Counted from the stretch's first letter, positions 2,559 to 27,425 are shown. The stretch: DNA of 64,000 nucleotides from Candidatus Heimdallarchaeota archaeon (GCA_030668875.1 DAOVER010000005.1:26597-90596); one strand, 5' to 3'. The notes: generated by a model from the sequence alone, not told the origin. A program made the numbers and translations.

Positions 2559-3911
2559 CTATTTTTTAATTTTCTTAATATATCTCCTATAACCATCTAA
2601 TGTGTCTTCAATTCTTAGAACATGTTTTTCTGCCTTAATTCTGAGTTCTTGCCATTCATCTTCATCAATCTTTTCAGAATTCAACGCTTGTTCGAGTTGT
2701 TGAATGCGTTCCAAGGCTTTTTGTCTCTTCGATTCTAAATGGGTGATAATATTCTGTATATCTTCAGATTGTACAGGAGATTTCTCCGTTTCACCTGATT
2801 CTGCTTCAATCATTTTTGTTAGAGCGGATTTTTCTTCTGGTTCAATATCTTTTTCCTCGGAAACATGAGCTATTGTTCTTTTGATAGATGAAACGAATTG
2901 TGCAGCATCTTCTTCTTCCGGTGCGGAAAGAACGCCACCTAAACGCGACACTGAAGCTCTAAAAGCATGTACTTCTTCCAGTTCTTCGTCTGTAAGTCCT
3001 TCATCAATTATCATTTCTTGTTCTGTCACAGAGGGGGAGTCATCGCCTAAGGTCAGTAATTTTTCAGTCAATGGTGATATTACGGAATCGTCCCCAGGAT
3101 CTAGGGCTGTTAAGAGACTAGCCAGTTTCTTTAGAGATTCTTGCTCAGATTCCAGAGTTTGTATAAATGGTTCTTGTTTGAATTCATACTGGGAAGCCAG
3201 TTCTATTCCTTCAATCAATTCTTTCGCGTCTGATGAAACATCTTCCTTTTCCTTAATTACAATTTCACCCTTCACTTCTGGCTCAGTTTCTATTTCAGTA
3301 GTATCAAGCTCCTCATCCGCATCTTCTTCTTTCATTTCTTCATCGAAAATCTCAATTTCAGATGGGATTACTTTTATTTCTTCTTCCTTTTCTTTATCAT
3401 CAATTTCAGGAATAACTTCAACTTTTTCAACTTCTTTCTCTGTTACTGTTTCCTCTTCGATGACTTCACCTTTTGGCAATTTTGATGTTTTTGACTTGAT
3501 TTTCTTTATTTCTTCATTTAAAGAATGGAAACTCAATTCCAAAGACTCAAGTTTCGCATTCAAATATTGGAGTGCATCATTATCAACAGCTGCAGATCGT
3601 TGATATTCAATCTGCAACATATTAGCATGAGTTATGACATTGTAAACTGTATCTGTCATTTCAGGTAATTCGCGGAACCAAGGCCCTGCACTATCAAATT
3701 TTAGTAATACATCCTTTGCTTTTTGAAAATGTTTCTCATATTCTTCTTGTTGTTCAAGGGGCAGAAATGATTTTGCAAAAGAGGTTAAAGTTGCAAGATT
3801 TGTTATCAAGTGTGCTTTGACGTTTTCTTCCTCATCAGGATTGTATTCCCCCTTCAGGACACCCCAAAACATCTTTTTTATTTCTTCAATGGCTTCTTCA
3901 AGATTCATCAT
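2559..3911 (-). CDS. hypothetical, highly acidic coiled-coil protein (450 aa)
   Basis: Long ORF with E/D/K-rich low-complexity central region and heptad-like termini. Its start overlaps the stop of the upstream gene at 3911. Confidence 0.6.
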   Translation of the reverse strand: MMNLEEAIEEIKKMFWGVLKGEYNPDEEENVKAHLITNLATLTSFAKSFLPLEQQEEYEKHFQKAKDVLLKFDSAGPWFRELPEMTDTVYNVITHANMLQIEYQRSAAVDNDALQYLNAKLESLELSFHSLNEEIKKIKSKTSKLPKGEVIEEETVTEKEVEKVEVIPEIDDKEKEEEIKVIPSEIEIFDEEMKEEDADEELDTTEIETEPEVKGEIVIKEKEDVSSDAKELIEGIELASQYEFKQEPFIQTLESEQESLKKLASLLTALDPGDDSVISPLTEKLLTLGDDSPSVTEQEMIIDEGLTDEELEEVHAFRASVSRLGGVLSAPEEEDAAQFVSSIKRTIAHVSEEKDIEPEEKSALTKMIEAESGETEKSPVQSEDIQNIITHLESKRQKALERIQQLEQALNSEKIDEDEWQELRIKAEKHVLRIEDTLDGYRRYIKKIKK

Positions 3912-4924
3912 TAAAACCCTAAATTAATAGTTCTTCGCTTTGTAAAATCTGGAGGAAGAGATGGTTCTATAAAAACTGCTTCAGCACTTAAGTCCTCTCT
4001 CATTTGATTAACAGATTCTAGTTTGTCAGCTGATGAAACATTCCAGAAATACAAAGAATATTTCATACCAGAACTTGAATAATCCTTGAGAACTTCAAGT
4101 GATGAAAGTATTTGTTGATACTCTGGTGTTCCTCGTGAAGGGAAGGATTCACTCCAAGGGTTAACATGAATAACGAAATTGTTTGTTACTTTAGCCAATT
4201 CAGTAATATTTTGCCCAAAATACTCATCAGCTCCAACAAGAAAACCTGTCTCTTTATCAGTCTTTACTGTAATTGCAATATCAATGTTTTTTAGATTCTT
4301 TATTGAGTCTGTTATTTCCCTTAAAGTTTGATTTATGTAAGTTGCCCGCGATTCCTTCCACTCTGCTAATAAGTCTCTAGATTCAAGGAAATCTGAACTA
4401 AAATCTCGTTCCACATTCCATTTAGCAGCAAAAATTCTGCGACATCGGTCACAAAAACAAGTTTCTTTGCTTGGAAACATTAATCCATCAAGCACAAGAG
4501 ATTCGATTGGATATTGCGCAACTTCTAGAGCAATTGATGCAATATATTTACTGAAATGCTCCTGACTTGGGCATGCATATGATGGCACAACTCCACCCTC
4601 GCTACTAATGATTCGAAAATCTGCATTTTGTGATAGAAAATTATCTTCATGATTGTAAATGAATGCGTTAACTTTGATCCCCATGTTATCTGCTATTGTG
4701 CAGAAGGAGTGGAAGAACACACCATTGAATTTATCTTTAGGAGCACTGTTGCTCTGGTAAAAAGTGAAACCAGACCTTCCTTTTGCAACTAAAGCAATTG
4801 TATCTAAAATATGACCATAATGATCAAGAAAATCATCAGGGTTTGTGTCAATGATAGTAGGATTAACAACCAGTATTGCTCCGCTTTCAAGTATTTCCTG
4901 AATAATGTCTGCCAAAGTAATCAC
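3911..4924 (-). CDS. hypothetical protein, possibly a glycoside-hydrolase-like TIM barrel (GHL/DUF187-like)
   Basis: The LVLDGLMFPSKETCFCDRCRRIF segment resembles the C-x-C-x2-C region I associate with hypothetical glycoside-hydrolase-like families. This is weak recognition only. Confidence 0.3.
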   Translation of the reverse strand: MITLADIIQEILESGAILVVNPTIIDTNPDDFLDHYGHILDTIALVAKGRSGFTFYQSNSAPKDKFNGVFFHSFCTIADNMGIKVNAFIYNHEDNFLSQNADFRIISSEGGVVPSYACPSQEHFSKYIASIALEVAQYPIESLVLDGLMFPSKETCFCDRCRRIFAAKWNVERDFSSDFLESRDLLAEWKESRATYINQTLREITDSIKNLKNIDIAITVKTDKETGFLVGADEYFGQNITELAKVTNNFVIHVNPWSESFPSRGTPEYQQILSSLEVLKDYSSSGMKYSLYFWNVSSADKLESVNQMREDLSAEAVFIEPSLPPDFTKRRTINLGF

Positions 4925-8380: not shown

Positions 8381-9094
8381 ATGTTAAGAACAACTATGAT
8401 AAGAATTTCGCAGAAATCGTTGAACATAGATACCTTAGATGAGTTTTACTCTTCTTTAGATGATGAATCTATAACAATTAAGCGTATTTTTGACCCACGA
8501 TATTCATTTTCAGGAGATGATCTCATCATAGAAGGGGATATCGATAAGGTTCTTACAAAACTTACACATGATTTACCCAAGGTTATTTCAGTTCGTTATA
8601 ATTTCGATGAATTTGAGGACCTCTTTGATCCTATAACAGCTCTCAATATTCAACATGGAGAAACTAAGATATACTTTGGAACAACTATGGTTGATTATGA
8701 AAACCTGTATGATAGATTACGCGTTAATGATAAGAAAAAGATATTTGCATTATTATTTAGAACACAACTTGGAAGCCAATTTATCTCACTTATGCCAGTA
8801 AAGATAAAGGGTGTTGTAGTAACGAATCTGTCAAATGGAAGTATTGAATTTATATTACCAACTCAAAGATTGGAAACTTTGAAAGTCTGGCTACAAAAAC
8901 TTATAGAAGTACGAACTGTGAATTTTGATACACTGGTTGATATTTACCGCGAAACTGACCCAGACATGAGAAGGAAAATGGAAGAAACAATGATTTGGGT
9001 CAACGGTCAATTACCGGATATTGTAGCGAAATCAACTGTTGTGGAAGATATTGACATAGTAAGAGCATACCAAAATACCTTAGCACTCATGTGA
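8381..9094 (+). CDS. hypothetical protein (237 aa), probably co-transcribed with polB
   Basis: Starts 13 nt after the polB stop on the same strand. No recognisable motif. Confidence 0.5.
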   Translation: MLRTTMIRISQKSLNIDTLDEFYSSLDDESITIKRIFDPRYSFSGDDLIIEGDIDKVLTKLTHDLPKVISVRYNFDEFEDLFDPITALNIQHGETKIYFGTTMVDYENLYDRLRVNDKKKIFALLFRTQLGSQFISLMPVKIKGVVVTNLSNGSIEFILPTQRLETLKVWLQKLIEVRTVNFDTLVDIYRETDPDMRRKMEETMIWVNGQLPDIVAKSTVVEDIDIVRAYQNTLALM

Positions 9095-9144: not shown

Positions 9145-9864
9145 GTGTTTTTATGCATTCAAGGAGAAAACAAAATGAAAAAGATGAAACTAATAATTCC
9201 ATTAATCTTAGTTGTAGTGTTACCTATTTTTGTCTTACCAACAGATGCTTTCATACCTGAAGATCAAGTTTTGATATTAGATCAACAATACTTCACAAGG
9301 GAAGCTGTTGAAGGAGAAAATATTACTATTGGAATTATTGTTAAGAATTTCTTTAATTACACAATTACAGACGTAAACATCTCATTAGACCTTACTGAAG
9401 AGGTCAACGCACTAAGATTTACTTCTTGTGATTTTGGTTCCCTCTCCAAGGAAAATGTTACTCTTAATTCAACAATGCAATCATCTGATGAAAACGAGTT
9501 CACTTCCACAAACATAACTTATGGTTATATGACAGAAAGTCATCTCACTTTCAATGTTTCACAGATATTGAATGGAACCCAAGCAATTTTTTATTATAAT
9601 GTGACTTCAGATGAAGATAGGTCAGCACAAGTTCCATATGTAAGAATGTCTTATTATGATAATTGGGAAGATCTTCAGGAAATTCAGAGTCAAAACCTAT
9701 TATTACTCAATTTCTTACCAGCTAATCCCCTAAAAGATCCAGTTTTACCCTGTTGGGAGTGTGGTGAATCCTTGCCAAATGTTTGGGGCTGGATTATTAT
9801 AGGGTTAGCACCAATATTATTTGGAGCTATAATTTCCTCTGTTTTATACATACGCAGAAGATAA
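9145..9864 (+). CDS. secreted, C-terminally membrane-anchored protein with many N-glycosylation sequons
   Basis: N-terminal signal-like segment KLIIPLILVVVLPIFVLP. C-terminal TM helix WGWIIIGLAPILFGAIISSVLYI followed by RRR. Multiple N-x-S/T sites. Confidence 0.55.
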   Translation: MFLCIQGENKMKKMKLIIPLILVVVLPIFVLPTDAFIPEDQVLILDQQYFTREAVEGENITIGIIVKNFFNYTITDVNISLDLTEEVNALRFTSCDFGSLSKENVTLNSTMQSSDENEFTSTNITYGYMTESHLTFNVSQILNGTQAIFYYNVTSDEDRSAQVPYVRMSYYDNWEDLQEIQSQNLLLLNFLPANPLKDPVLPCWECGESLPNVWGWIIIGLAPILFGAIISSVLYIRRR

Positions 9865-10943: not shown

Positions 10944-11495
10944 ATGAACCCACATGTTGAAGTGAAATTTAGAGATTATGATATCTATAAACTAGTTATT
11001 TGTGGTCCCGGTAAATCAGGTAAAACATCTATTTGTAAAAGATTAACTCAGAATACTTTTCAAAAGAAGTATCAACCAACTTGTGGGGCTGAATTTCACA
11101 GTTATTCATTCAAAACATCTAAAGGTAAAGCAGTGGCTCTTTTCTACGATATGGCAGGACAAAAGCGTTTTGGTGTTGTAAGGAATCTTCTCTATTCAGG
11201 TACTAATGCTGCAGCAATTGTTTTTGACATATCAAACAAAGAATCCTTTCGAGAATGTGCAAAATGGATCAGAGAACTAAGAACTCAAAACAAAGAATTA
11301 GACATCACTATTGTAGGGAATAAAACAGATTCTACGCGAGATGTTGAGAAAATTGATGCTGAGAGAATTAGTCGCAGACTTGGTTGTAGATACGTTGAAA
11401 CTTCAGCTTTAACCGGCGATGGTATAGGAGATTTAGTTAAAACTTTGGTAAGTTCTGCTATTATTAGTTCTAATAAGAAATTTGTAGGGAGATAA
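10944..11495 (+). CDS. Ras-superfamily (Rab/Ras-like) small GTPase
   Basis: G1 GPGKSGKT, switch-I Thr (QPTCGAEF), G3 DMAGQ, G4 GNKTD and G5 ETSAL. There is no C-terminal Cys for prenylation. Confidence 0.85.
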   Translation: MNPHVEVKFRDYDIYKLVICGPGKSGKTSICKRLTQNTFQKKYQPTCGAEFHSYSFKTSKGKAVALFYDMAGQKRFGVVRNLLYSGTNAAAIVFDISNKESFRECAKWIRELRTQNKELDITIVGNKTDSTRDVEKIDAERISRRLGCRYVETSALTGDGIGDLVKTLVSSAIISSNKKFVGR

Positions 11496-11575: not shown

Positions 11576-12007
11576 TTGATGAGTAGTAAAAGTAAACTAA
11601 CCTCCAATATTCGAATATATATCATTCAGTATGCTATATTTATCTTTGGTGGCATACTTGCAATCGCGGGAATATATATGATTAATCTTGAGGGATTAGC
11701 AGCTGCAGGATTTATTCTCCTGAGCTTAGGTTCCGTTTTTATTGTTTTATCTTATATATATGCGAGGTATGGTGCTAGGGTAATTGGTACAAATTGTCCT
11801 TTCTGCTATGGAGTAGGTTATACTGATAAAGGAAAAATGGGAGCAAAAGAACTCTGCCCTGTCTGTGAAGGATCAGGAAAAATGTATTCCAAATCTCAAC
11901 AACATCTCATGGAAGAACAAAGGAGAAAAGAAATAACGAAAAGTGAAACTTCACGCAGAGTAGAACTTACTGAAGAAGAACGTGATGAAAATTCCAAAAA
12001 CCAATAG
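11576..12007 (+). CDS. membrane protein with DnaJ-type CxxCxGxG zinc-finger pair
   Basis: Two N-terminal TM helices, then CPFCYGVGY and CPVCEGSGK, then a charged tail. Confidence 0.5.
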   Translation: MMSSKSKLTSNIRIYIIQYAIFIFGGILAIAGIYMINLEGLAAAGFILLSLGSVFIVLSYIYARYGARVIGTNCPFCYGVGYTDKGKMGAKELCPVCEGSGKMYSKSQQHLMEEQRRKEITKSETSRRVELTEEERDENSKNQ

Positions 12008-15690: not shown

Positions 15691-15855
15691 ATGAGTGAAA
15701 GAGACATTGTCGAATTACTAGTAAGGTGGCGTTCGCTAGCAATGATGCTTGAAAGAGAGGAATTCAAAAGAATAGCAGGGGATCAAAAGGGTCTAATTGC
15801 AGCCGTTCTTATGATATTACTAGAGATGCAACAAAACTCGTCTGGAGGATACTAA
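15691..15855 (+). CDS. small ORF (54 aa) upstream of the E2 gene, absent from the ORF track
   Basis: My translation is MSERDIVELLVRWRSLAMMLEREEFKRIAGDQKGLIAAVLMILLEMQQNSSGGY. It ends 43 nt before the E2 start. There is no homology support. Confidence 0.25.
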   Translation: MSERDIVELLVRWRSLAMMLEREEFKRIAGDQKGLIAAVLMILLEMQQNSSGGY

Positions 15856-15898: not shown

Positions 15899-16366
15899 AT
15901 GTTAGCAGAAGAAGAGTTCTGGCCAAGGATAGCAATTGAAGCTAATGAATTGAAAAAAGAGCTTCCAACATTTAAACCAGTGGACAATAATACTTTGTTT
16001 TGGAGAGGATTCATTTTTGGAGCTGGGTTATATGAAGAAGGAGTATTTGTTCTTGAAATTGAAATTCCCAGAGAATATCCCTTCAAACCACCAAAAGTCA
16101 AAATGTTAACAAAAGTATTCCACGCAAATGTTTTCGATACAAGAATATGCGTAGGAGTATTAGGAGTAGATTGGACACCTGCTAATAACCTAGTAGATGT
16201 AATTGAATCAATAAGGTTCATACTTAGCAATCCAAATCCAGATGATCCTTTGAACTCTACGGCTGCTAATTTGATGAAACGTGATCCAAAGGAATATTCC
16301 CGCAAAGTAAGAGAATATGTTGAGAAGTATGCTACTTTTGAGCAGATAGGCAAATATTCGTTGTAG
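15899..16366 (+). CDS. ubiquitin-conjugating enzyme E2 (UBC fold)
   Basis: YPFKPPKVKMLTKVFHANV...RICVGVLGVDWTPANNL matches the UBC core: an HPN-like HAN triad, a catalytic Cys, and W-x-P-A. Confidence 0.85.
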   Translation: MLAEEEFWPRIAIEANELKKELPTFKPVDNNTLFWRGFIFGAGLYEEGVFVLEIEIPREYPFKPPKVKMLTKVFHANVFDTRICVGVLGVDWTPANNLVDVIESIRFILSNPNPDDPLNSTAANLMKRDPKEYSRKVREYVEKYATFEQIGKYSL

Positions 16367-16432: not shown

Positions 16433-17242
16433 ATGCCACCAGGTTATATTCAAGAAATATTCTCCAGTTTTCAAGGTGAAGGAGCTTCTATTGAAGGAAG
16501 TTGCTATGGTTTAAGACAAATTTTCGTTCGGTTTTCAGGATGTCCTCTTGCTCTAGGAGTACATGGAACCAAAGGATGCATTTGGTGTGATTCTCCCAAA
16601 GCTAAAATAGCAAAACAAGAAACATGTTACATTGAAACAGATGCGGGAAATCAAGAATTTAGAGAAGAGAAAAATCCAATAAGCCCAGAAAACATCATAA
16701 AAATTATTCAGAACTTGACAACCAAAGACTTACACACCATTAGTTTGACAGGAGGAGAACCACTTTATCAACCTCAATTTCTTGAAGAGCTTCTCAATCA
16801 ACTCAAAACTGAAAGTTATAAAATATTCCTGGAAACAGCTTTCACTGATGATTTCAAGTTTCTTGAAAAAATTGCAAGTAAGATAGATTATGCTTGCGTA
16901 GATTTAAAGGATAGAACTGCAGGTGCATCAACCAATTGGGAACAGCTCATTGAGGAGGAAAGCAAAATGGTGAAAATTTTGAAAAATGCTGGGACTAAGG
17001 TTTTTGCAAAAACTGTAATAACTAAATCCTCAAAAAAAGAAGATTTTGAAGTAATCACAAAGAAATGCTCAGAAAATGATGTTCCAATTGTAATCCAGAT
17101 TGTAACGCCCATTAGGGGAACAAAAATATTACAACCAACGTGGAATCAAATCAAAGAATTCTCTGAATTAGCCGGAAAATATTTACCTCCCGAAAAGATT
17201 GGTATTTCTGTCCAGATGCACAAAAGTATAAACATACTATAG
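16433..17242 (+). CDS. queE: 7-carboxy-7-deazaguanine synthase (radical SAM)
   Basis: N-terminal IFSSFQGEGASIEG, then RFSGCPLA...CIWCDS (cluster Cys residues) and LTGGEPL. Confidence 0.8.
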   Translation: MPPGYIQEIFSSFQGEGASIEGSCYGLRQIFVRFSGCPLALGVHGTKGCIWCDSPKAKIAKQETCYIETDAGNQEFREEKNPISPENIIKIIQNLTTKDLHTISLTGGEPLYQPQFLEELLNQLKTESYKIFLETAFTDDFKFLEKIASKIDYACVDLKDRTAGASTNWEQLIEEESKMVKILKNAGTKVFAKTVITKSSKKEDFEVITKKCSENDVPIVIQIVTPIRGTKILQPTWNQIKEFSELAGKYLPPEKIGISVQMHKSINIL

Positions 17243-17254
17243 AGGCCCATAAAA

Positions 17255-18226
17255 ATGAAAGTTAAAAATGACAAACTATCTGATGTTCAATCCGATCCAT
17301 CAAGGATACAAATAGGAATTCGAAGAGTAGGAATCAGCGATATTCCTAAAATTATAAGACGAAAAAGATTCGGAGTATATAATGAATTATCAGCTAAAAT
17401 AGATGTTTATGTGGATCTTTTGCCCTCAAAAAGAGGTATTCACATGTCAAGGAATATTGAAGCAATAAATGAAGTTATTGCAACACTTACTGGAGAAGTA
17501 ATAACAGATTGTGAAGAGCTCTGTGCAAAAATTGCTGAGAAGGTAATTACAATTCAACCTGGAGCACGTTATGCAGAAGTTAGTTTAATAGCGGATTATG
17601 AGATGGAAACATTTTCAAATGCTATTTCTAGGAAAAAATCCAGCGTTCACAAGCTACGTGCTGGTGCATATGCCAAAAAAAAGGAGAATAAAATTACAAT
17701 AACAAAAGTTATTGGTGCAGAAGTTGAAGGTACAACTGTATGTCCATGCTCACAAGAACTTTCAAGAGATATATCTAAAGAGAGATTATTAAAAGAAGGA
17801 TTTTCCGAAGAACAAATCAAGAAAGTTATTGAAAATGTTCCAATGGCAGCTCATAATCAACGATCAAAATCTATACTTTTGTTCGAGCAACCTAGAGATG
17901 CAAAAAGAATAGAACTTGAAGATATCATTGAAATACTTGAAACATCAATGAGCGCTCCAATCCATGAAGTATTGAAAAGGAGAGATGAACTCGCAGTAGT
18001 ACTGTACGCCCATCAACATCCAGTTTTTGTTGAAGATGTTGTTCGAATCATATTGCGTAAAGTAAGTAAAAAATTTGTAAAGCAACCCCAAAATACTATT
18101 GTATCAGTAAAGCAGATAAATTATGAAAGCATACATCAACATAATGCAGTTGCTGAGGTTAAAACAACACTTGAAAGCCTAGATAAGCAATTAAACGGAT
18201 ATGAAAAGAATGAAAATACAGAATAA
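17255..18226 (+). CDS. folE2: GTP cyclohydrolase IB (FolE2/MptA family)
   Basis: LPSKRGIHMSRN and TVCPCSQELS motifs. Sits within the queE/queD/queC context. Confidence 0.75.
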   Translation: MKVKNDKLSDVQSDPSRIQIGIRRVGISDIPKIIRRKRFGVYNELSAKIDVYVDLLPSKRGIHMSRNIEAINEVIATLTGEVITDCEELCAKIAEKVITIQPGARYAEVSLIADYEMETFSNAISRKKSSVHKLRAGAYAKKKENKITITKVIGAEVEGTTVCPCSQELSRDISKERLLKEGFSEEQIKKVIENVPMAAHNQRSKSILLFEQPRDAKRIELEDIIEILETSMSAPIHEVLKRRDELAVVLYAHQHPVFVEDVVRIILRKVSKKFVKQPQNTIVSVKQINYESIHQHNAVAEVKTTLESLDKQLNGYEKNENTE

Positions 18227-18830
18227 AGGCAATTATTCTATTATAATTGAAGACTTGAAAAAATCAACAACTTATGATGGATCTCAGCTTTCAAGTCAGT
18301 TTACATCACAAAATTACAATGTAATAGGAAACTCAATCCTGGTTTTCAGAGGAGGGATGAAATTATCTCCAAAAGAGATGGTAGATATAAAAGATATTCA
18401 AAGAGAATCACACTTGAGTGATATTTTAATTAGTTCAGATGACAGTATACACTTTATCATAGAAGAATTTGACATTCAACCTCCAAACATGGAAATTGAA
18501 TATTATAGATTAAGAGTACTTACACAGCTAGTTATAGAATTTCTAAGGTCTAGAGGGATATCAACAACAAGAAAAGGTACAGACATATACATTCATGATA
18601 GGAAACTAAATGTAGGAATTGCAAGTATTAGTGTATCTAGTAGCAAAATACACTTTGGAATAAATCTGAGTTGTACAGGTTTTCCACAACATGTTAAAGC
18701 AACTTGTTTATTTGATTTGGACGTAAAAGAAGAGGAAATAGAAGGAATTGTTGTTCAAATAATAGAGAGATATGTGGAGGAAATACAACGAATAAAGGAA
18801 GATGTTGCAAAAACACGTTACATACATTAG
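18201..18830 (+). CDS. hypothetical protein embedded in the preQ0 operon (209 aa)
   Basis: Overlaps the folE2 3' end by 26 nt and ends 8 nt before queD. KGTDIYIHDRKLNVGIASISVSSSKIHFGINL is faintly reminiscent of the lipoate/biotin-ligase fold. Confidence 0.5.
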   Translation: MKRMKIQNKGNYSIIIEDLKKSTTYDGSQLSSQFTSQNYNVIGNSILVFRGGMKLSPKEMVDIKDIQRESHLSDILISSDDSIHFIIEEFDIQPPNMEIEYYRLRVLTQLVIEFLRSRGISTTRKGTDIYIHDRKLNVGIASISVSSSKIHFGINLSCTGFPQHVKATCLFDLDVKEEEIEGIVVQIIERYVEEIQRIKEDVAKTRYIH

Positions 18831-18838
18831 GTGATTAA

Positions 18839-19294
18839 ATGAAATTGAGGATTTCTGGAGACAAACTTACAATCGCGTGTGCCCATATGCTTTCGAAACA
18901 CGATAAATGCGCTCGTGTGCATGGTCACAATTATCAAATTGAAGTTGAAATAGAAGGAGAGATTAATGAGAGTAATATGATTATTGATTTTGGCCTCTTC
19001 AAAAAAGGTGTGAGCGAGATCCTTAAAGAATTGGATCATAAAACTTTACTACCGGAAAATAGCAAAGATTTTAACATTAAAACTAACAAAAAAGAAGTAA
19101 TAATTTCAACATGTGATGATAAAAGATATAGATTCCCTAGAGAAGATGTCAAGTTACTACCAATAGAAGCAACTACTGCTGAACTTATGTCCGTGTATTT
19201 TCATGATTTAATCAAAAAACAATTTCCAGAATTTAAAATCACAGTAATTATGTCGGAAACTCCTACGAGTAAGGTCATCTATACAGGTGATTGA
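18839..19294 (+). CDS. queD: 6-carboxy-5,6,7,8-tetrahydropterin synthase
   Basis: CAHMLSKHDKCARVHGHNYQIEVEIEG carries the Cys and His-x-His zinc/catalytic motif. Size is typical. Confidence 0.85.
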   Translation: MKLRISGDKLTIACAHMLSKHDKCARVHGHNYQIEVEIEGEINESNMIIDFGLFKKGVSEILKELDHKTLLPENSKDFNIKTNKKEVIISTCDDKRYRFPREDVKLLPIEATTAELMSVYFHDLIKKQFPEFKITVIMSETPTSKVIYTGD

Positions 19295-19355
19295 TTTTCG
19301 ATAATACGAAAATAATATGTTGAACCTACATGTCATTAAGCGAAGAGGATTAAAA

Positions 19356-20075
19356 ATGGTTATAGCAATAATATTATTCTCTGGAGGATTAGATTCTTCT
19401 GCCTGTCTTTATTGGGCTATTGAACGATATGATAGGATAATACTATTAAGTTTCAAATATGGTAGCAAAGAAGATGAAGTTATCAAAAGATTAAATCTGA
19501 AATTTGCAAATTTTTACAATTTGGAAAGCAAAATTATCTCTCTAGATTTCCTTGAAGAACTCTCCTTAAAAAGAGGTTCAAAACTCGCATCGGTTGAATC
19601 GGAACCTCCTGAATTTTCTAGTTTTAAGCAACTTGATGAGAGTAAATTGACAAAAGAGACAGCAAATCAAGTATGGGTTCCAGCAAGAAACATACTATTC
19701 ATATCCGCAGCTTCAGCTGTTGCGGATAGTTACAAGGAACCGGTTCATATCTTATTTGGTGCAAACAAAGAAGAAGCAACAACATTTCCAGATAATACTC
19801 CTGAGTTTGTAGAACGGATGAATGGTGCTATTAGTTTAGGTTGCTTAAACGAGGTTTCTGTTCTCGCACCTTTCAATACACAAATTAAAAGTGAGATCAT
19901 TGAATTTTTGATTGAAAAGAAGGCAAAATTTGAGTATATGTCTTCTTGTTATCAGGTCAAAGAATGGACAAAGGAAGGATATCCGATCCATTGTGGAATT
20001 TGTGAGTCATGCCAAAGAAAAAAGAGAGCTTTTCAAGAATCGGGGGTTTCGGATCCAACATTTTATAAGAAATAA
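19356..20075 (+). CDS. queC: 7-cyano-7-deazaguanine (preQ0) synthase
   Basis: PP-loop ILFSGGLDSS and a C-terminal zinc cluster CYQ...CGICESCQRKKRAF. The start is moved to the ATG at 19356, which follows a GAGGA-like Shine-Dalgarno (SD) sequence. Confidence 0.85.
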   Translation: MVIAIILFSGGLDSSACLYWAIERYDRIILLSFKYGSKEDEVIKRLNLKFANFYNLESKIISLDFLEELSLKRGSKLASVESEPPEFSSFKQLDESKLTKETANQVWVPARNILFISAASAVADSYKEPVHILFGANKEEATTFPDNTPEFVERMNGAISLGCLNEVSVLAPFNTQIKSEIIEFLIEKKAKFEYMSSCYQVKEWTKEGYPIHCGICESCQRKKRAFQESGVSDPTFYKK

Positions 20076-20129
20076 GGTAATTTGAAAGCAAATAGTTTTT
20101 ATTTGTAGTTCACCTTCGTATACAATGGG

Positions 20130-20783
20130 GTGAAATGTATGGGTCTACGTATCTTTTCAGTTAATAAAGATGGTAGTTTTTTCGAGGTTCCATCAGAGAA
20201 AGAGAGTTTTCTTCGCGGTGATGGAGCTTATTTGATTGTAGATAGAAAAGAAAAGAAGATATTCATCTATCGAAAAATGGGCATATCAAGTGCTTTAGCA
20301 TATTCAGCCGCTAGAGCAGCAACCAACCTTAATACACATAAGGGTTCTAGATACAAAATCATTAACATAGAGGAGGAAGAGAAGGATCGTATACTTCCAT
20401 CACTTTATCAGAGGCTAGATGTTTCGATTCCAAGTGAGATTAAAGAAAGTAAAGAAACTGCGATTGCCTCGAGAAATATTGTTTATGGTGAAACAACCAT
20501 TCCAGTTTTTGAAACAAAAAACTATTCTTCAAGCGTCCAAACTAAGAAAGAAGAGAGAGAAATACAACCTGTAAGAAAAATTCTTCAAATAGAGAAAGAG
20601 AAGGAGAGTTACAAAACTCAAAATATTGATGAGTTAGTTAAAACTTTGGCAAATCAGATTCTTTTTGAAACTAAATTAGACAAAGCCAAAAAAATGAATA
20701 AGCCAGCAAGACATATTCTGAAAGCTGAAATGGTTAAAAAGATAGATTCGTTATTAGATAATATCTATGAAGAGGACAACTAA
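20130..20783 (+). CDS. gelsolin/cofilin-like domain protein with a K/E-rich tail
   Basis: LRIFSVNKDGSFFEVPSEKESFLRGDGAYLIVDRKEKKIFIYRKMGISSALAYSAARAATNL...IEEEEK aligns by eye with the gelsolin repeat pattern (L.IWRV...VP...F..GD.Y.I......Y.W.G..S......A...A..L....E). Confidence 0.45.
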   Translation: MKCMGLRIFSVNKDGSFFEVPSEKESFLRGDGAYLIVDRKEKKIFIYRKMGISSALAYSAARAATNLNTHKGSRYKIINIEEEEKDRILPSLYQRLDVSIPSEIKESKETAIASRNIVYGETTIPVFETKNYSSSVQTKKEEREIQPVRKILQIEKEKESYKTQNIDELVKTLANQILFETKLDKAKKMNKPARHILKAEMVKKIDSLLDNIYEEDN

Positions 20784-22161: not shown

Positions 22162-22968
22162 TTAGTTGGTTAAATCATTAACAGAAATCCAGTTTACTAT
22201 CTCTTGCGGATAGAAAATTACTTTCTGCTCTACTTTCATTTGTAATAACTGTGAAAACTTTCTAAGAGCGACATTACAGAAATCTTGAATAGGGATAAAT
22301 AGGAAATTCATTTTGTTTTGTTTGTATTCCTTTAATCGTTTTGAATCTAAATTGAAACTAACCACTGTAGTTACTCCTTCCTTCTTGAGTTTCTTTAGTT
22401 CTTCTGACGATAATTCTTGCTTTTCCAGTACAAAACATTCAGGTTTATCATCGGATGTGTTGTTAAAAGCTATCCATTTCTTTGTGAGATGTGAAAGATT
22501 TGCTAGGAAATCTTTGAAAGAAATTTCGCTAGCATTCCAGCGAGAAATGTTGTTACCTGGAGATACGGAAACTTTGTCTTGTTTAAATCGATTGACACCA
22601 AGTGTTTGTAGAAAGTATGCAAAAGCACCATTTTTTGAGTATAACCAGTTATTTGATAGGCTCATTGTTTTGATATTATTGGTAGTTAAAGAGCGTAATA
22701 ATTCAAAATCTCGCTCAGATAATGGAAAACCATTTTCGATAATAGATAATGGCAGAATAGTGATAACCAGATTAGATTTGTTATCATTCATCGAGTGTGT
22801 AAGTCTAAGATTAGCAAATGTGGAAACGAAGATCGTTTTTACTATAGTAGATTTTGTAACCTTTTCTGCATAAGTTCCAAATTCAAGCCCAAAATCCTTA
22901 TTTCGTATGACATCTTTATCACACATTGAGCTAAGTAATTTCAATATCTCGTCTAAAGTTTTTGTCAT
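22162..22968 (-). CDS. hypothetical protein (268 aa)
   Basis: Intact ORF 11 nt downstream of the NSUN gene on the same strand. No motif recognised. Confidence 0.5.
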   Translation of the reverse strand: MTKTLDEILKLLSSMCDKDVIRNKDFGLEFGTYAEKVTKSTIVKTIFVSTFANLRLTHSMNDNKSNLVITILPLSIIENGFPLSERDFELLRSLTTNNIKTMSLSNNWLYSKNGAFAYFLQTLGVNRFKQDKVSVSPGNNISRWNASEISFKDFLANLSHLTKKWIAFNNTSDDKPECFVLEKQELSSEELKKLKKEGVTTVVSFNLDSKRLKEYKQNKMNFLFIPIQDFCNVALRKFSQLLQMKVEQKVIFYPQEIVNWISVNDLTN

Positions 22969-23943: not shown

Positions 23944-25221
23944 ATGGGTGGAATTAAGAGAAAAAGAAAGAAAATCGAAACGCCAGGTCATCCTTATGAT
24001 AAAGCTCGCTTAGAGAGAGAACTCCCTCTTGTTGGTGCTTATGGTTTAAGAAACAAGCGCGAATTATGGAAAGCAAGAACTATTCTTTCTACAGCTAGAC
24101 AACAAGCTAGAGGCTTACTAGCTCTTGACCCTGAAATTAGAAAAGTTAGAGAACAAGAACTTCTTTCAAGACTCTCTCGTTTTGGTATGTTATCTCAGAA
24201 TAGCAATCTTGACTCTGTTTTAGCACTTGAAATTAAAGTCATTCTTGAAAGAAGACTTCAAACAATTGTATTCAGAAAAGGTTTAGCATCCTCTCCGTAC
24301 CAAGCTCGTCAATTTATTGCTCACAGACACATAGCTATTGGAACTGGTGTTGCAACATCTCCTAGCAGATTAATCACAATAGCTGAAGAGGAGATAGTCA
24401 ACTACGCTCCCCGTTCTCCACTGAATGATCAAACTCATCCTTCGCGACCTCAAGCACCTCCTGCTTTTGATGCGGGGCAACCTGAGAAAAGGGAAGAACA
24501 TAAGCGTGAAAGAACTGGAAGAGATGGCAAACCTAGAAGGAAAGAAGCTCCAAAGAAGGAAACTAAACCAGGAGTTAAACCAAAACCAGAGGTAAAGAAG
24601 GAAACTCCAAAGAAAGAAGCTCCAAAGAAGGAAACTAAACCAGGAGTTAAACCAAAACCAGAGGTAAAGAAGGAAACTCCAAAGAAAGAAGTTCCAAAGA
24701 AGGAAACTCCAAAACCAGAGGTAAAGAAGGAAACTCCAAAGAAAGAAGTTCCAAAGAAGGAAACTCCAAAACCAGAGGTAAAGAAGGAAACTCCAAAACC
24801 AGAGGTAAAAAAGGAAACTCCAAAACCAGAGGTTAAAACAAAGCCAGAAGTGAAGAAAGAGGTTCCAAAGAAGGAAACTAAACCAGAAGTTAAAACAAAG
24901 CCAGAGGTAAAGAAGGAAACTCCAAAACCAGAGGTAAAGAAGGAAACTCCAAAACCAGAGGTTAAAACAAAGCCAGAAGTAAAGAAAGAAGCTCCAAAGA
25001 AGGAAACTAAAATCTCTGACCTTGACATCTCTTTGATAAAAGGTATTGGTGCAAAAACTGCCATGCTTCTCAAAGAAAATGGCTTTGATACTGTTGGTAA
25101 GATTGCTAAGGCAACTACTGAAGAACTTTCCAAAGTTCCAGGTGTTGGTCCCGCTACTGCATCAGCTATGAATAGTGAAGCTAAAGTTTTGCTTTCAAAG
25201 AAAGCTGAGGATAAGAAGTAG
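23944..25221 (+). CDS. rps4: 30S ribosomal protein uS4 with a C-terminal extension of about 260 aa (K/P/E tandem repeats plus an HhH module)
   Basis: The N-terminal ~165 aa is a normal archaeal S4 (PGHPYDKARLERE...S4 RNA-binding domain). Then come KPEVKKETPKKE repeats and ISDLDISLIKGIGAKTAMLLKENGFDTVGKIAKATTEELSKVPGVGPATA. Confidence 0.9.
   Translation: MGGIKRKRKKIETPGHPYDKARLERELPLVGAYGLRNKRELWKARTILSTARQQARGLLALDPEIRKVREQELLSRLSRFGMLSQNSNLDSVLALEIKVILERRLQTIVFRKGLASSPYQARQFIAHRHIAIGTGVATSPSRLITIAEEEIVNYAPRSPLNDQTHPSRPQAPPAFDAGQPEKREEHKRERTGRDGKPRRKEAPKKETKPGVKPKPEVKKETPKKEAPKKETKPGVKPKPEVKKETPKKEVPKKETPKPEVKKETPKKEVPKKETPKPEVKKETPKPEVKKETPKPEVKTKPEVKKEVPKKETKPEVKTKPEVKKETPKPEVKKETPKPEVKTKPEVKKEAPKKETKISDLDISLIKGIGAKTAMLLKENGFDTVGKIAKATTEELSKVPGVGPATASAMNSEAKVLLSKKAEDKK
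24544..25008 (+). repeat. in-frame coding tandem repeats inside uS4 (72-nt unit x2, 57-nt unit x2, then shorter KPEVKKETP variants)
   Basis: gaagctccaaagaaggaaactaaaccaggagttaaaccaaaaccagaggtaaagaaggaaactccaaagaaa recurs with a 72-nt period at 24544 and 24616. Related units continue to about 25008. Confidence 0.9.
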
Positions 25222-25805: not shown

Positions 25806-26252
25806 ATGACAATTACTAAAGCTAAAATATTTGCATGTGAAATCTGTGGGAAAGAGTTTGGAAGAAAGGACAATCTAGGAAGGCACAAAATAACAGTTCA
25901 TTCCAAATCACAGAAGCATAAATGTCCAAAGTGCAATTTTTCTTCAACAAGAAAAGATAGTCTTGATAAACATATCAAAGAAGTTCACAGTGAAGTAAAG
26001 CAATATTCTTGTAAAATGTGTGGAGAAAGGTTCACACAAAAAGGGAGTATGGAAAGGCATATAGATTCCTCTCATAAAGACGTTTTTTCTTTTGCATGTC
26101 CCAAATGCAATTCAATTTTCTCAAGAAAAGATAGCTTGTTACGACATATCAGAAGTGTGCACGAAGGTATAAGACCTCACAAATGTTCAGAATGTGGTAA
26201 AAGCTTTCAACATAAACATCATCTGAAGGATCACCTAATTTTAGGTCATTGA
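25806..26252 (+). CDS. C2H2 zinc-finger protein, 5 tandem fingers
   Basis: There are five C-x2-C-x12-H-x4-H units, for example CEICGKEFGRKDNLGRHKITVH and CSECGKSFQHKHHLKDHLILGH. The period is about 28-29 aa with linkers such as EGIRPHKC. Confidence 0.9.
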   Translation: MTITKAKIFACEICGKEFGRKDNLGRHKITVHSKSQKHKCPKCNFSSTRKDSLDKHIKEVHSEVKQYSCKMCGERFTQKGSMERHIDSSHKDVFSFACPKCNSIFSRKDSLLRHIRSVHEGIRPHKCSECGKSFQHKHHLKDHLILGH

Positions 26253-26261
26253 GGGAAGGAA

Positions 26262-27425
26262 ATGAGTAACTCGGAAAAAATAATAATGCGACCAACTTGT
26301 GAAATCTGCGGTCTTAGTTTTTCAAGAAAAGACAGTTTGTATAGACACAAACGATCAGTTCATTCAGAGTCAAAGAAATATAGCTGTACAGAATGCAATC
26401 TCACATTTTCTCGTAAAGATACACTGGATCGTCACATCAATGATGTCCACAAACAAATAAGGAAATATATTTGTACCATATGTGACGAGAAGTTCAAACA
26501 AGCGGGTGCTCTAAAAAGACATATCCAAACAATGCATGAGAAGAATATTAGTTATGAATGTCCAAACTGTGATGCAGCATTCCCGCGTAAAGACAACCTA
26601 GACAGACACATAAATGCCGTTCATTTAAACCTCCGACCCCACATTTGCCAGGAATGTGGTGCAGCTTTCAAACTACCTGATCACCTTAAGCAGCACATTA
26701 TTTCCATACATACTGACCGGCGTCAATATGTTTGTGATGAATGTGGTTTTGCTTTCAAACTTCGTCAACATCTAAATGATCATGTCAAAGTTGTTCACCT
26801 AGGTCTTCGTTCTTATGCTTGTGAGGAATGTGATTCTTCTTTTGCTCATGCTCGTGCTCTTAAGCAACACATTATTTCTGTTCATACCGATGAACTTCCT
26901 TATGTTTGCGAGAAATGTAAGAGAGGATTTGCAGATCCTAGTCATCTATATAGGCATGAAAAAGCTGAAGCTTGTTGGTTTACAACTACTACTGCCTACA
27001 AATGGGAAGAGCTTTGTAAAGAGATAGCTGAGATTCTTTTAGAGGAAAAGAATTGGGAGTGGAAACCTACTATAGAAACACCTGAGTTGGTTGAACAGAC
27101 TAGAGTGCAGCCTGAGATTGTTATCTATAATGATGATGGTACGATGGATTTTATCGATGCTAAGAGGTCTACTTATGCTATTTTCAAGGAGAAGGATCTG
27201 GTAGTTTATCCTAAGGTGGCTAGGAGGGTGGAGTTCTGGTGCCTCTACGGTAAAACCAAGGGGATATTTGAAGAGGAGGAAGGGGTGGAAGCGAAATCAA
27301 GTGAAGAAATCATTGGCAAACTAGAAAAGGAAGATTCGCATGATGGACAGAGAGTAAGGAATCTAATAATGAAGATTAGTTTATTGAAAAAGGGAATAAG
27401 ATTTGAAGGACAACAGACACTGTAG
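26262..27425 (+). CDS. C2H2 zinc-finger protein with 8 tandem fingers and a C-terminal domain of about 150 aa carrying a PD-(D/E)XK-like motif
   Basis: Seven C-x2-C-x12-H-x4-H fingers plus a terminal C2HC-like finger (CEKCKRGFADPSHLYRHEKAEAC). The C-terminal region has KWEELCKEIAEILLEE ... VQPEIVIYNDDGTMDFIDAKRS. Confidence 0.85.
   Translation: MSNSEKIIMRPTCEICGLSFSRKDSLYRHKRSVHSESKKYSCTECNLTFSRKDTLDRHINDVHKQIRKYICTICDEKFKQAGALKRHIQTMHEKNISYECPNCDAAFPRKDNLDRHINAVHLNLRPHICQECGAAFKLPDHLKQHIISIHTDRRQYVCDECGFAFKLRQHLNDHVKVVHLGLRSYACEECDSSFAHARALKQHIISVHTDELPYVCEKCKRGFADPSHLYRHEKAEACWFTTTTAYKWEELCKEIAEILLEEKNWEWKPTIETPELVEQTRVQPEIVIYNDDGTMDFIDAKRSTYAIFKEKDLVVYPKVARRVEFWCLYGKTKGIFEEEEGVEAKSSEEIIGKLEKEDSHDGQRVRNLIMKISLLKKGIRFEGQQTL

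Follow-up and report, generated by a model that had tools for sequence, protein, structure and literature searches.

The gelsolin fold is used by eukaryotes for cutting and capping actin filaments. In Asgard archaea, three gelsolin architectures have been described: ProGel, 1DGelX (a gelsolin domain joined to a domain X, for which a helical or coiled-coil structure is predicted), and 2DGel (Akil et al. 2020, PMC7444086). Independently of Ca2+, the 1DGelX protein of Thorarchaeota (Thor) was able to nucleate, sequester, and sever rabbit actin; the addition of a C-terminal domain to the single gelsolin domain brought higher affinity and severing, and the authors proposed that this extension is a filament side-binding element (PMC7444086). 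C-terminal extensions are also found in the Loki and Heim 2DGel proteins, where they are lineage specific and of unclear role, and in cells the tail of Heim2DGel had an effect on localization and none on actin disassembly (Akil et al. 2022, PMC9433394). Here, we describe a gene within a 64,000-nucleotide stretch of DNA from a Candidatus Heimdallarchaeota archaeon (GCA_030668875.1, DAOVER010000005.1:26597-90596; the whole stretch is termed the window). Its product, hereafter the Heimdall protein, belongs to a subfamily of the known Asgard mini-gelsolins that is divergent, has not been annotated before, and has a conserved C-terminal module of its own. The gene and the parts of its product are located as follows:

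20139-20783, + strand: coding sequence, 214 amino acids (aa) plus stop, 24.7 kDa, isoelectric point of 9.1, with an N terminus shared by the homologues
20139-20426, + strand: gelsolin-homology domain, residues 1 to 96, with four strands, a long helix (51-67), strand 5, and a helix (82-96)
20427-20618, + strand: variable linker predicted to be disordered, residues 97 to 160, rich in K, E, S, and T
20481-20504, + strand: linker motif VYGETTIP, residues 115 to 122 (consensus VYGEKT-P), conserved in the alignment
20619-20768, + strand: C-terminal module, residues 161 to 210, with two amphipathic helices (163-177 and 191-211), ending in LLDxIY

We obtained two AlphaFold2 models of the protein, model 1 from an alignment of the close family (A1) and model 2 from a more diverse alignment (A6). 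Both models showed strands at residues 4 to 8, 14 to 17, 30 to 35, and 40 to 45, a long helix at residues 51 to 67, a fifth strand at residues 73 to 77, and a second helix at residues 82 to 96. The predicted local distance difference test (pLDDT) score of the N-terminal domain was ∼75 to 80 with A1, and that of residues 1 to 96 was 84 to 91 with A6. Residues 1 to 96 thereby display the gelsolin order of elements (β-β-β-β-long helix-β-helix, with the sheet lying between the long and the shorter helix). An initial annotation had likened the first ∼90 aa to gelsolin by eye, and the segments on which it relied indeed fall on these elements: LRIFSV forms strand 1, FEVP strand 2, FLRGDGAYLIV a loop and strand 3, and IFIYRKMGISS strand 4 and the turn that follows, while AYSAARAATNL lies within the long helix and IEEEEK runs from the last part of strand 5 into the beginning of helix 2. 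When compared with the PDB by Foldseek, the 50 best matches were all chains of gelsolin-family entries, a few of them chimeric entries that align past the gelsolin part. The best one was Thorarchaeota ProGel (PDB 7c2f), with an E value of 9e-5, a target template-modeling score of 0.74, and a deviation of 2.1 Å. In the structure-comparison table, Thor ProGel also ranked highest with a score of 12.3 (87 of 88 residues aligned, 2.1 Å) and was followed by Loki 2DGel (11.0) and then by adseverin, Thor 2DGel3, fragmin, gelsolin G2, G3, and G1, villin, and severin (8.2 to 10.6). The gelsolin-like domains of Sec23/24 scored 6 to 8.8, and the ADF-H proteins cofilin, GMF, twinfilin, and coactosin scored 5 to 6. 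The domain is of the gelsolin type and not of the cofilin type; the protein falls outside the ADF-H/cofilin family, and the Pfam Cofilin_ADF model has no match in it.

Profile comparisons gave the same answer as the structures. Because circularity was to be avoided, we built two separate alignments, one containing only the N-terminal domains of the subfamily (A3) and the other only recognized gelsolins (A4: ProGel, the 2DGel domains in the PDB, and Pfam-positive Asgard proteins). Aligned with hhalign, A3 and A4 matched over 93 columns with a probability of 99.3 % and an E value of 2.9e-20. The hidden Markov model (HMM) of A4 was also run against all open reading frames (ORFs) of the window in six frames, where the gelsolin ORF was its sole match (57.9 bits, E value of 1e-17). 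An exhaustive HMMER search of 1.84 billion representatives with the A1 profile returned 30 proteins and recovered Pfam-positive Asgard gelsolins. The distant matches bear a gelsolin-like "IWKG" and were included in a combined alignment (A2), 13 of whose 28 sequences reach Pfam Gelsolin and whose profile matched ProGel, 2DGel, villin, and gelsolin in the PDB at E values of 1e-16 to 1e-5. Residues 1 to 96 are almost certainly homologous to Thor ProGel and to the Asgard 2DGel domains. The structure and profile searches thus return a gelsolin fold, the absence of which, together with that of an ADF-H fold, had been named as grounds for giving up the initial annotation. Within the family alignment, column entropy was lowest in strand 4, the long helix, and strand 5, and the most conserved stretch of the protein, KKIxIYRKxGISSxLxYSAxRAATNLxTxxGSxYxIINIE, runs through these three elements. 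In gelsolin G1 and in ProGel, the face that these elements form is the one that contacts actin.

We then compared individual residues in 32 members of the subfamily, using as an anchor the aromatic residue that stands in the place of the gelsolin Trp (W). Positions W+9 and W+21, which we take from human gelsolin G1 (E97 and D109) to be the type II and type I Ca2+ sites, respectively, lack acidic residues throughout: all 32 members have L or I at W+9 and N or K at W+21. The Ca2+-binding domains of 2DGel have E and D at these positions, and ProGel has K and S, so that the acidic residues of both sites are absent from ProGel as well as from the Heimdall protein. ProGel is indeed described as being without calcium sites (PMC7444086). 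Two positions of the long helix are also common to ProGel and the Heimdall protein. W+15 is R in ProGel and in the 28 closest members of the subfamily (M, L, or S in P0031, P0032, P0037, and P0050) and is not R in 2DGel. W+20 is L in ProGel and in the subfamily, with I in one member, and varies in 2DGel.

The domain has the same length as ProGel, to which it is only ∼17 to 21 % identical. Beyond the domain, ProGel has no tail, and the Heimdall protein adds a 64-residue linker and a conserved module of 50 residues. With Thor 1DGelX, it shares one gelsolin domain and, after it, a non-gelsolin C-terminal region for which a helical structure is predicted, and Ca2+ control is not expected in the Heimdall protein, just as none was measured for Thor 1DGelX. 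However, the gelsolin domain of Thor 1DGelX is 35 % identical to ProGel, compared to ∼18 % for the Heimdall protein, and Thor 1DGelX runs near actin on gels and is therefore probably larger than 24.7 kDa. The Heimdall protein fits the 1DGelX class by architecture, the two X regions being alike in their description. The 2DGel proteins (Thor, Loki, and Heim; PDB 7c2g/h, 7whf, and 7whg) have homologous gelsolin domains, and those of Loki and Heim also carry lineage-specific C-terminal extensions. They differ by having two domains instead of one, a WH2-like motif of the LKKT type after domain 1, and the Ca2+-binding Glu (W+9) and Asp (W+21), all of which set them apart from the Heimdall protein. 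Eukaryotic gelsolin, villin, adseverin, fragmin, and severin have three to six domains and are regulated by calcium; the C-terminal headpiece of villin has no Pfam match in the Heimdall protein. As the initial annotation had proposed, the protein is a single-domain member; no second gelsolin match was found in it.

A BLASTP search from ProGel found two sets of Asgard proteins, P0034/P0046-like Gel+X proteins and the P0033-like family, at E values of 1e-14 to 1e-6, and left the Heimdall subfamily unmatched except for one match at an E value of 0.035. The subfamily is therefore unlikely to be the family that BLAST-based surveys detected. Nor did a full-text search of a collection of papers find a description of the subfamily. 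The P0034/P0046-like Gel+X proteins (also P0062 to P0111) have ∼280 to 380 aa and a gelsolin domain that Pfam detects and that is 25 to 33 % identical to ProGel. A linker of low complexity then leads to a C-terminal domain of ∼100 aa, in which the motif VPxGMxRE-IIxG...FFG occurs. They are widespread in metagenome-assembled genomes (MAGs) of Hodarchaeales, Heimdall, and Promethearchaeota and are called "hypothetical" wherever they are named. Their X domain is unrelated to the Heimdall module, whose HMM has no match in it.

The initial annotation had described everything after the gelsolin domain as a K/E-rich tail. This description suits the linker, which contains 14 % K and 17 % E, and misses two conserved elements, a motif inside the linker and the helical module at residues 161 to 210. 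The linker had pLDDT scores of <50 (residues 98 to 161 in model 2 and 96 to 159 in model 1), and its columns have the highest entropy in the family alignment, its length and sequence both varying among homologues. Embedded in it is the octapeptide VYGE(K/T)TxP, which is nearly invariant in the Heimdall clade: in A1, G117, E118, and P122 never change and V115, Y116, and T120 hardly ever do, and E118 is still ≥90 % conserved in the wider A6. In the C-terminal module, the two helices are joined by a turn that contains K-P with an almost invariant Pro, and LLDxIY forms the very C terminus of most members. An alignment of the module (A5) comprises 19 sequences, down to ∼20 % overall identity (P0031, P0032, P0037, and P0038). 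The module HMM matched members of the subfamily only, always at the extreme C terminus, and the module was never seen on other domains in the exhaustive HMMER search of the 1.84 billion representatives. Pfam and PDB sequence searches with the module gave no meaningful match. A word-indexed search with this profile recovered a single fragment but not the known members, which makes it unreliable as a negative; that the module is restricted to the subfamily is better supported by the HMMER search and the module HMM.

Reading the sequence by eye, we found a hydrophobic stripe along each helix, formed by I163, L166/V167, L170/A171, and I174/L175 in helix 163-177 (hydrophobic moment, 1.44) and by I193/L194, M198, I202, L205/L206, and I209/Y210 in helix 191-211. 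Such wide stripes suggest that the 50-residue hairpin probably packs against a second copy of itself or against a partner. Several known tail elements were compared with the C-terminal region and rejected. For WH2/LKKT, there was no regular-expression match in the tail, and the "IKKI" of the last helix is not conserved. A villin-type headpiece found no Pfam match at E values of ≤10 and no PDB sequence match with the module profile. The capping-protein CPI motif, the proteasome HbYX C terminus, the CAP-Gly EEY ligand, the MIM1 motif, and the RIIa docking domain were compared by eye and set aside, since the supposed key residues of each are unconserved in A5.

The protein has 20 close homologues with 47 to 92 % identity, all from Heimdallarchaeota/Heimdallarchaeaceae MAGs or from metagenomes and "hypothetical" in every source that names them. 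A pattern scan covering one genome per GTDB species found orthologues in at least 22 species (A1), and 17 of these 22 orthologue records are titled Heimdallarchaeota MAGs. The host is a Heimdall-group Asgard archaeon, in line with the Asgard origin that had initially been assumed. One record titled Thorarchaeota (JBHLQZ010000006.1) has a Heimdall-type gene order and a 50 % identical orthologue; this bin may be mislabeled. The + strand ORF listed from a GTG at 20130 to 20783, which the initial annotation had delimited, exists, yet its coding start is the ATG at 20139. All 20 close homologues open with MGLR, MSLR, or MVLR at the matching position, and upstream alignment of 10 orthologous loci showed that this ATG is conserved and that the GTG falls within a GGGGTGA ribosome-binding box. 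Two upstream elements accompany the gene:

20098-20106, + strand: TATA-box-like element TTTTTATTT, ∼33 nucleotides 5' of the ATG
20127-20133, + strand: Shine-Dalgarno-like GGGGTGA, 5 nucleotides 5' of the ATG

GGGGTGA is kept in 9/10 of the aligned loci. The coding sequence is placed at 20139-20783 because of the homologue N termini and because the Shine-Dalgarno-like box and the ATG are conserved in the orthologous loci. The TTTAT core of TTTTTATTT is invariant in 10 orthologous intergenic regions, including loci where the protein is just 35 to 50 % identical, and we infer that TTTTTATTT probably acts as the gene's own promoter. Judged by sequence, the ORF is a real gene.

Gene order around the gelsolin gene was the same in 22/22 species and around the more distant P0022 and P0026. 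It reads E2 (UQ_con), queE, folE2, DUF366, queD, queC, and the gelsolin gene, with a convergent gene for an RsmB/F-type methyltransferase and then a conserved 268-aa ORF on the 3' side. The whole block is syntenic from Rad51 to the ribosomal protein genes, and the gelsolin gene is its fastest-evolving member (47 to 51 % identity versus 55 to 94 % for its neighbors). P0032, a relative with ∼22 % identity and the same architecture, is located between a tRNA-intron endonuclease gene and aCPSF1, with no preQ0 neighborhood. We considered a functional link to preQ0/archaeosine synthesis and regard it as unlikely, because the block is syntenic, the gene evolves fastest within it, it has its own TATA box, and P0032 lies elsewhere. 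Under the reading that we favor, the placement of the gene behind the preQ0 operon reflects a gene order particular to the lineage.

This favored reading is that the Heimdall protein is a calcium-independent regulator of actin filaments belonging to the Asgard "mini-gelsolin" class and, within it, to the 1DGelX type. By analogy with its relatives, the protein rather probably binds actin, and the full reading is one that we put forward with slightly less assurance. The gelsolin gene would be transcribed from its own promoter. Helix 51-67 of the domain would bind the barbed-face cleft of actin, as in ProGel and G1, and would do so without a calcium switch, as the domain lacks the residues that make up the Ca2+ sites of types I and II. 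The flexible linker of ∼65 residues, with its YGEKT-P peptide, would tether the two-helix C-terminal module. The module, and perhaps YGEKT-P as well, may then provide a second contact, through dimerization into a two-headed molecule or through binding to the filament side or to another partner. With such a second contact, a protein that would otherwise bind weakly, like ProGel, might come to sever, cap, or bundle filaments, as reported for Thor 1DGelX. A specific role of the tail is a tentative idea and somewhat doubtful, the role given to the C-terminal module being one that we purely infer. More doubtful still is a combined proposal in which the module and YGEKT-P constitute a cytoskeletal interaction module that has not been described before in Heimdall-group archaea, making the protein either a dimeric, two-headed, Ca-free severing or bundling gelsolin or a link between actin and a non-cytoskeletal partner.

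Several observations weigh against the reading as an actin-filament regulator. The Pfam Gelsolin model (PF00626) matched neither the protein nor any of 16 close homologues searched individually, even at E values of ≤10, and was also silent on P0026, P0027, P0031, P0032, and P0037. The D-W-G hallmark, which is cited for ProGel, 2DGel, and gelsolin (PMC7444086), is only partly kept. Its Asp (W-9) is D35, present in 31/32 members and in ProGel (2DGel was not compared, as its register differs). The Trp, retained in 2DGel and ProGel, is Y44 in the Heimdall clade and F, V, or K in distant members, and the Gly (W+2), also retained in 2DGel and ProGel, is K46, with a Gly two residues further on. No WH2-like motif L[KR][KRH][TV] was found by regular expression in the 32 members, and the six-frame search of the window with the A4 HMM revealed no second gelsolin domain. 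Among 39 ORFs of the window compared with Pfam (most ORFs of ≥100 aa up to position ∼27400), none encodes actin or profilin. Genes for tRNA or rRNA modification adjoin the gelsolin gene in every Heimdall genome examined. Finally, as regards the role of the module, its pLDDT scores of 61 to 85 denote moderate model confidence.

Some of these points can be qualified. The Y44/K46 pattern is a variant of the D-W-G hallmark and departs from its strict form. More distant "IWKG" relatives do match PF00626, and the failure of PF00626 on the subfamily reflects the limited sensitivity of one model and not a lack of homology. Searches of Pfam-A, NCBIfam, and PDB sequences, with the single protein as well as with the close-family profile, gave only noise, namely, Mediator Med17 (E value of 1.5) and a spermidine acetyltransferase (E value of 0.12). 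The initial annotation had advised a check against the Pfam Gelsolin and ADF-H models; neither detects the protein, and this check on its own would have led to a wrong rejection of the gelsolin idea.

The main rival explanation, which we consider rather improbable, is that the gelsolin fold serves here as an adaptor, with no binding to actin, in the manner of the gelsolin-like domain of Sec23/24. The helix, YGEKT-P, and the C-terminal module could in that case recruit another partner, possibly one tied to the flanking RNA-modification genes. This explanation would account for the order queE-folE2-DUF366-queD-queC-gelsolin-rsmB/F in 22/22 species and in more distant members, for the ∼22 % identical relative lying between tRNA-intron endonuclease and aCPSF1, and for the altered W and G of the hallmark and the lack of a Pfam Gelsolin match. 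However, the nearest structures and profiles are those of actin-binding Asgard gelsolins and not of Sec23/24. In addition, synteny of the block from Rad51 to the ribosomal protein genes means that the adjacency may be mere gene order of one lineage, and both the loss of the preQ0 neighborhood in P0032 and the conserved TATA box of the gelsolin gene speak against such a tie.

Another explanation to which we give low credence assumes a weak monomer or side binder, similar to ProGel or cofilin, whose tail tunes localization or solubility and adds no severing or capping. ProGel is indeed the closest structure, Ca sites are absent in both proteins, and the Heim2DGel tail changed localization without changing actin disassembly in cells (PMC9433394). 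Yet the module and YGEKT-P are conserved far above the surrounding linker, down to ∼20 % identity, which argues for a specific interaction, and in Thor the single domain gained affinity and severing when a C-terminal domain was present (PMC7444086). A chance resemblance or a spurious ORF, to which the empty Pfam, NCBIfam, and single-sequence PDB searches might point, has next to no probability and is refuted by the conservation of the gene across the genomes of 22 species and across many metagenomes, which follows a domain-like pattern, and by the agreement of both structure searches, the profile-profile comparison, and the A4 HMM on gelsolin.

As neither Pfam nor BLAST from known gelsolins picks up the subfamily, sequence-based counts of gelsolins in these genomes are probably too low. 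The subfamily also illustrates that a single gelsolin domain can be extended in a second way, namely, by a short helical module that is conserved and held on a flexible tether. Should the module and YGEKT-P indeed constitute a new interaction module, multivalent gelsolins would have been reached independently of the domain duplication seen in 2DGel and in eukaryotic gelsolins. Should the protein not bind actin, it would be an archaeal instance of the gelsolin fold put to another use, comparable to Sec23/24. Heimdall actin and profilin have already been produced, and Asgard cultures exist.

Other features of the window deserve mention. The genes upstream of the gelsolin gene form a compact cluster for the preQ0/archaeosine precursor (16433-20075, + strand; queE-folE2-DUF366-queD-queC), in which the DUF366 gene overlaps the end of folE2; its conserved order in 22/22 species suggests that DUF366 belongs to the preQ0/archaeosine pathway. 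The gene for the ubiquitin-conjugating enzyme (E2, UQ_con; 15899-16366) is directly preceded by a 54-aa ORF (15691-15855, + strand) predicted from sequence only. This small ORF is 83 to 98 % identical where the gelsolin is only 47 to 70 % identical, four of five copies end in SGGY or SGGF, and its pairing with E2 is notable. Downstream of the RsmB/F-type methyltransferase gene, the 268-aa ORF (22162-22968, - strand) has no Pfam match and is syntenic in all species examined, with 33 to 90 % identity. No Pfam family was found at an E value of ≤0.001 for the ORFs at 2559-3911 (-), 3911-4924 (-), 8381-9094 (+), 9145-9864 (+), and 11576-12007 (+). A Ras/Roc-family small GTPase (10944-11495, + strand; Pfam Ras, E value of 3e-37) is a typical Asgard eukaryotic signature protein. 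Ribosomal protein S4 of the S13-S4-S11 cluster (23944-25221, + strand) has 425 aa and a C-terminal extension of ∼240 residues with helix-hairpin-helix motifs, and an orthologue at a related locus (L029) has 235 aa. Lastly, two adjacent ORFs (25806-26252 and 26262-27425, + strand) encode arrays of eukaryote-type C2H2 zinc fingers, which are unusual for archaea and match zf-C2H2 at E values of 3e-27 and 2e-43 as well as the H2C2 linker model.
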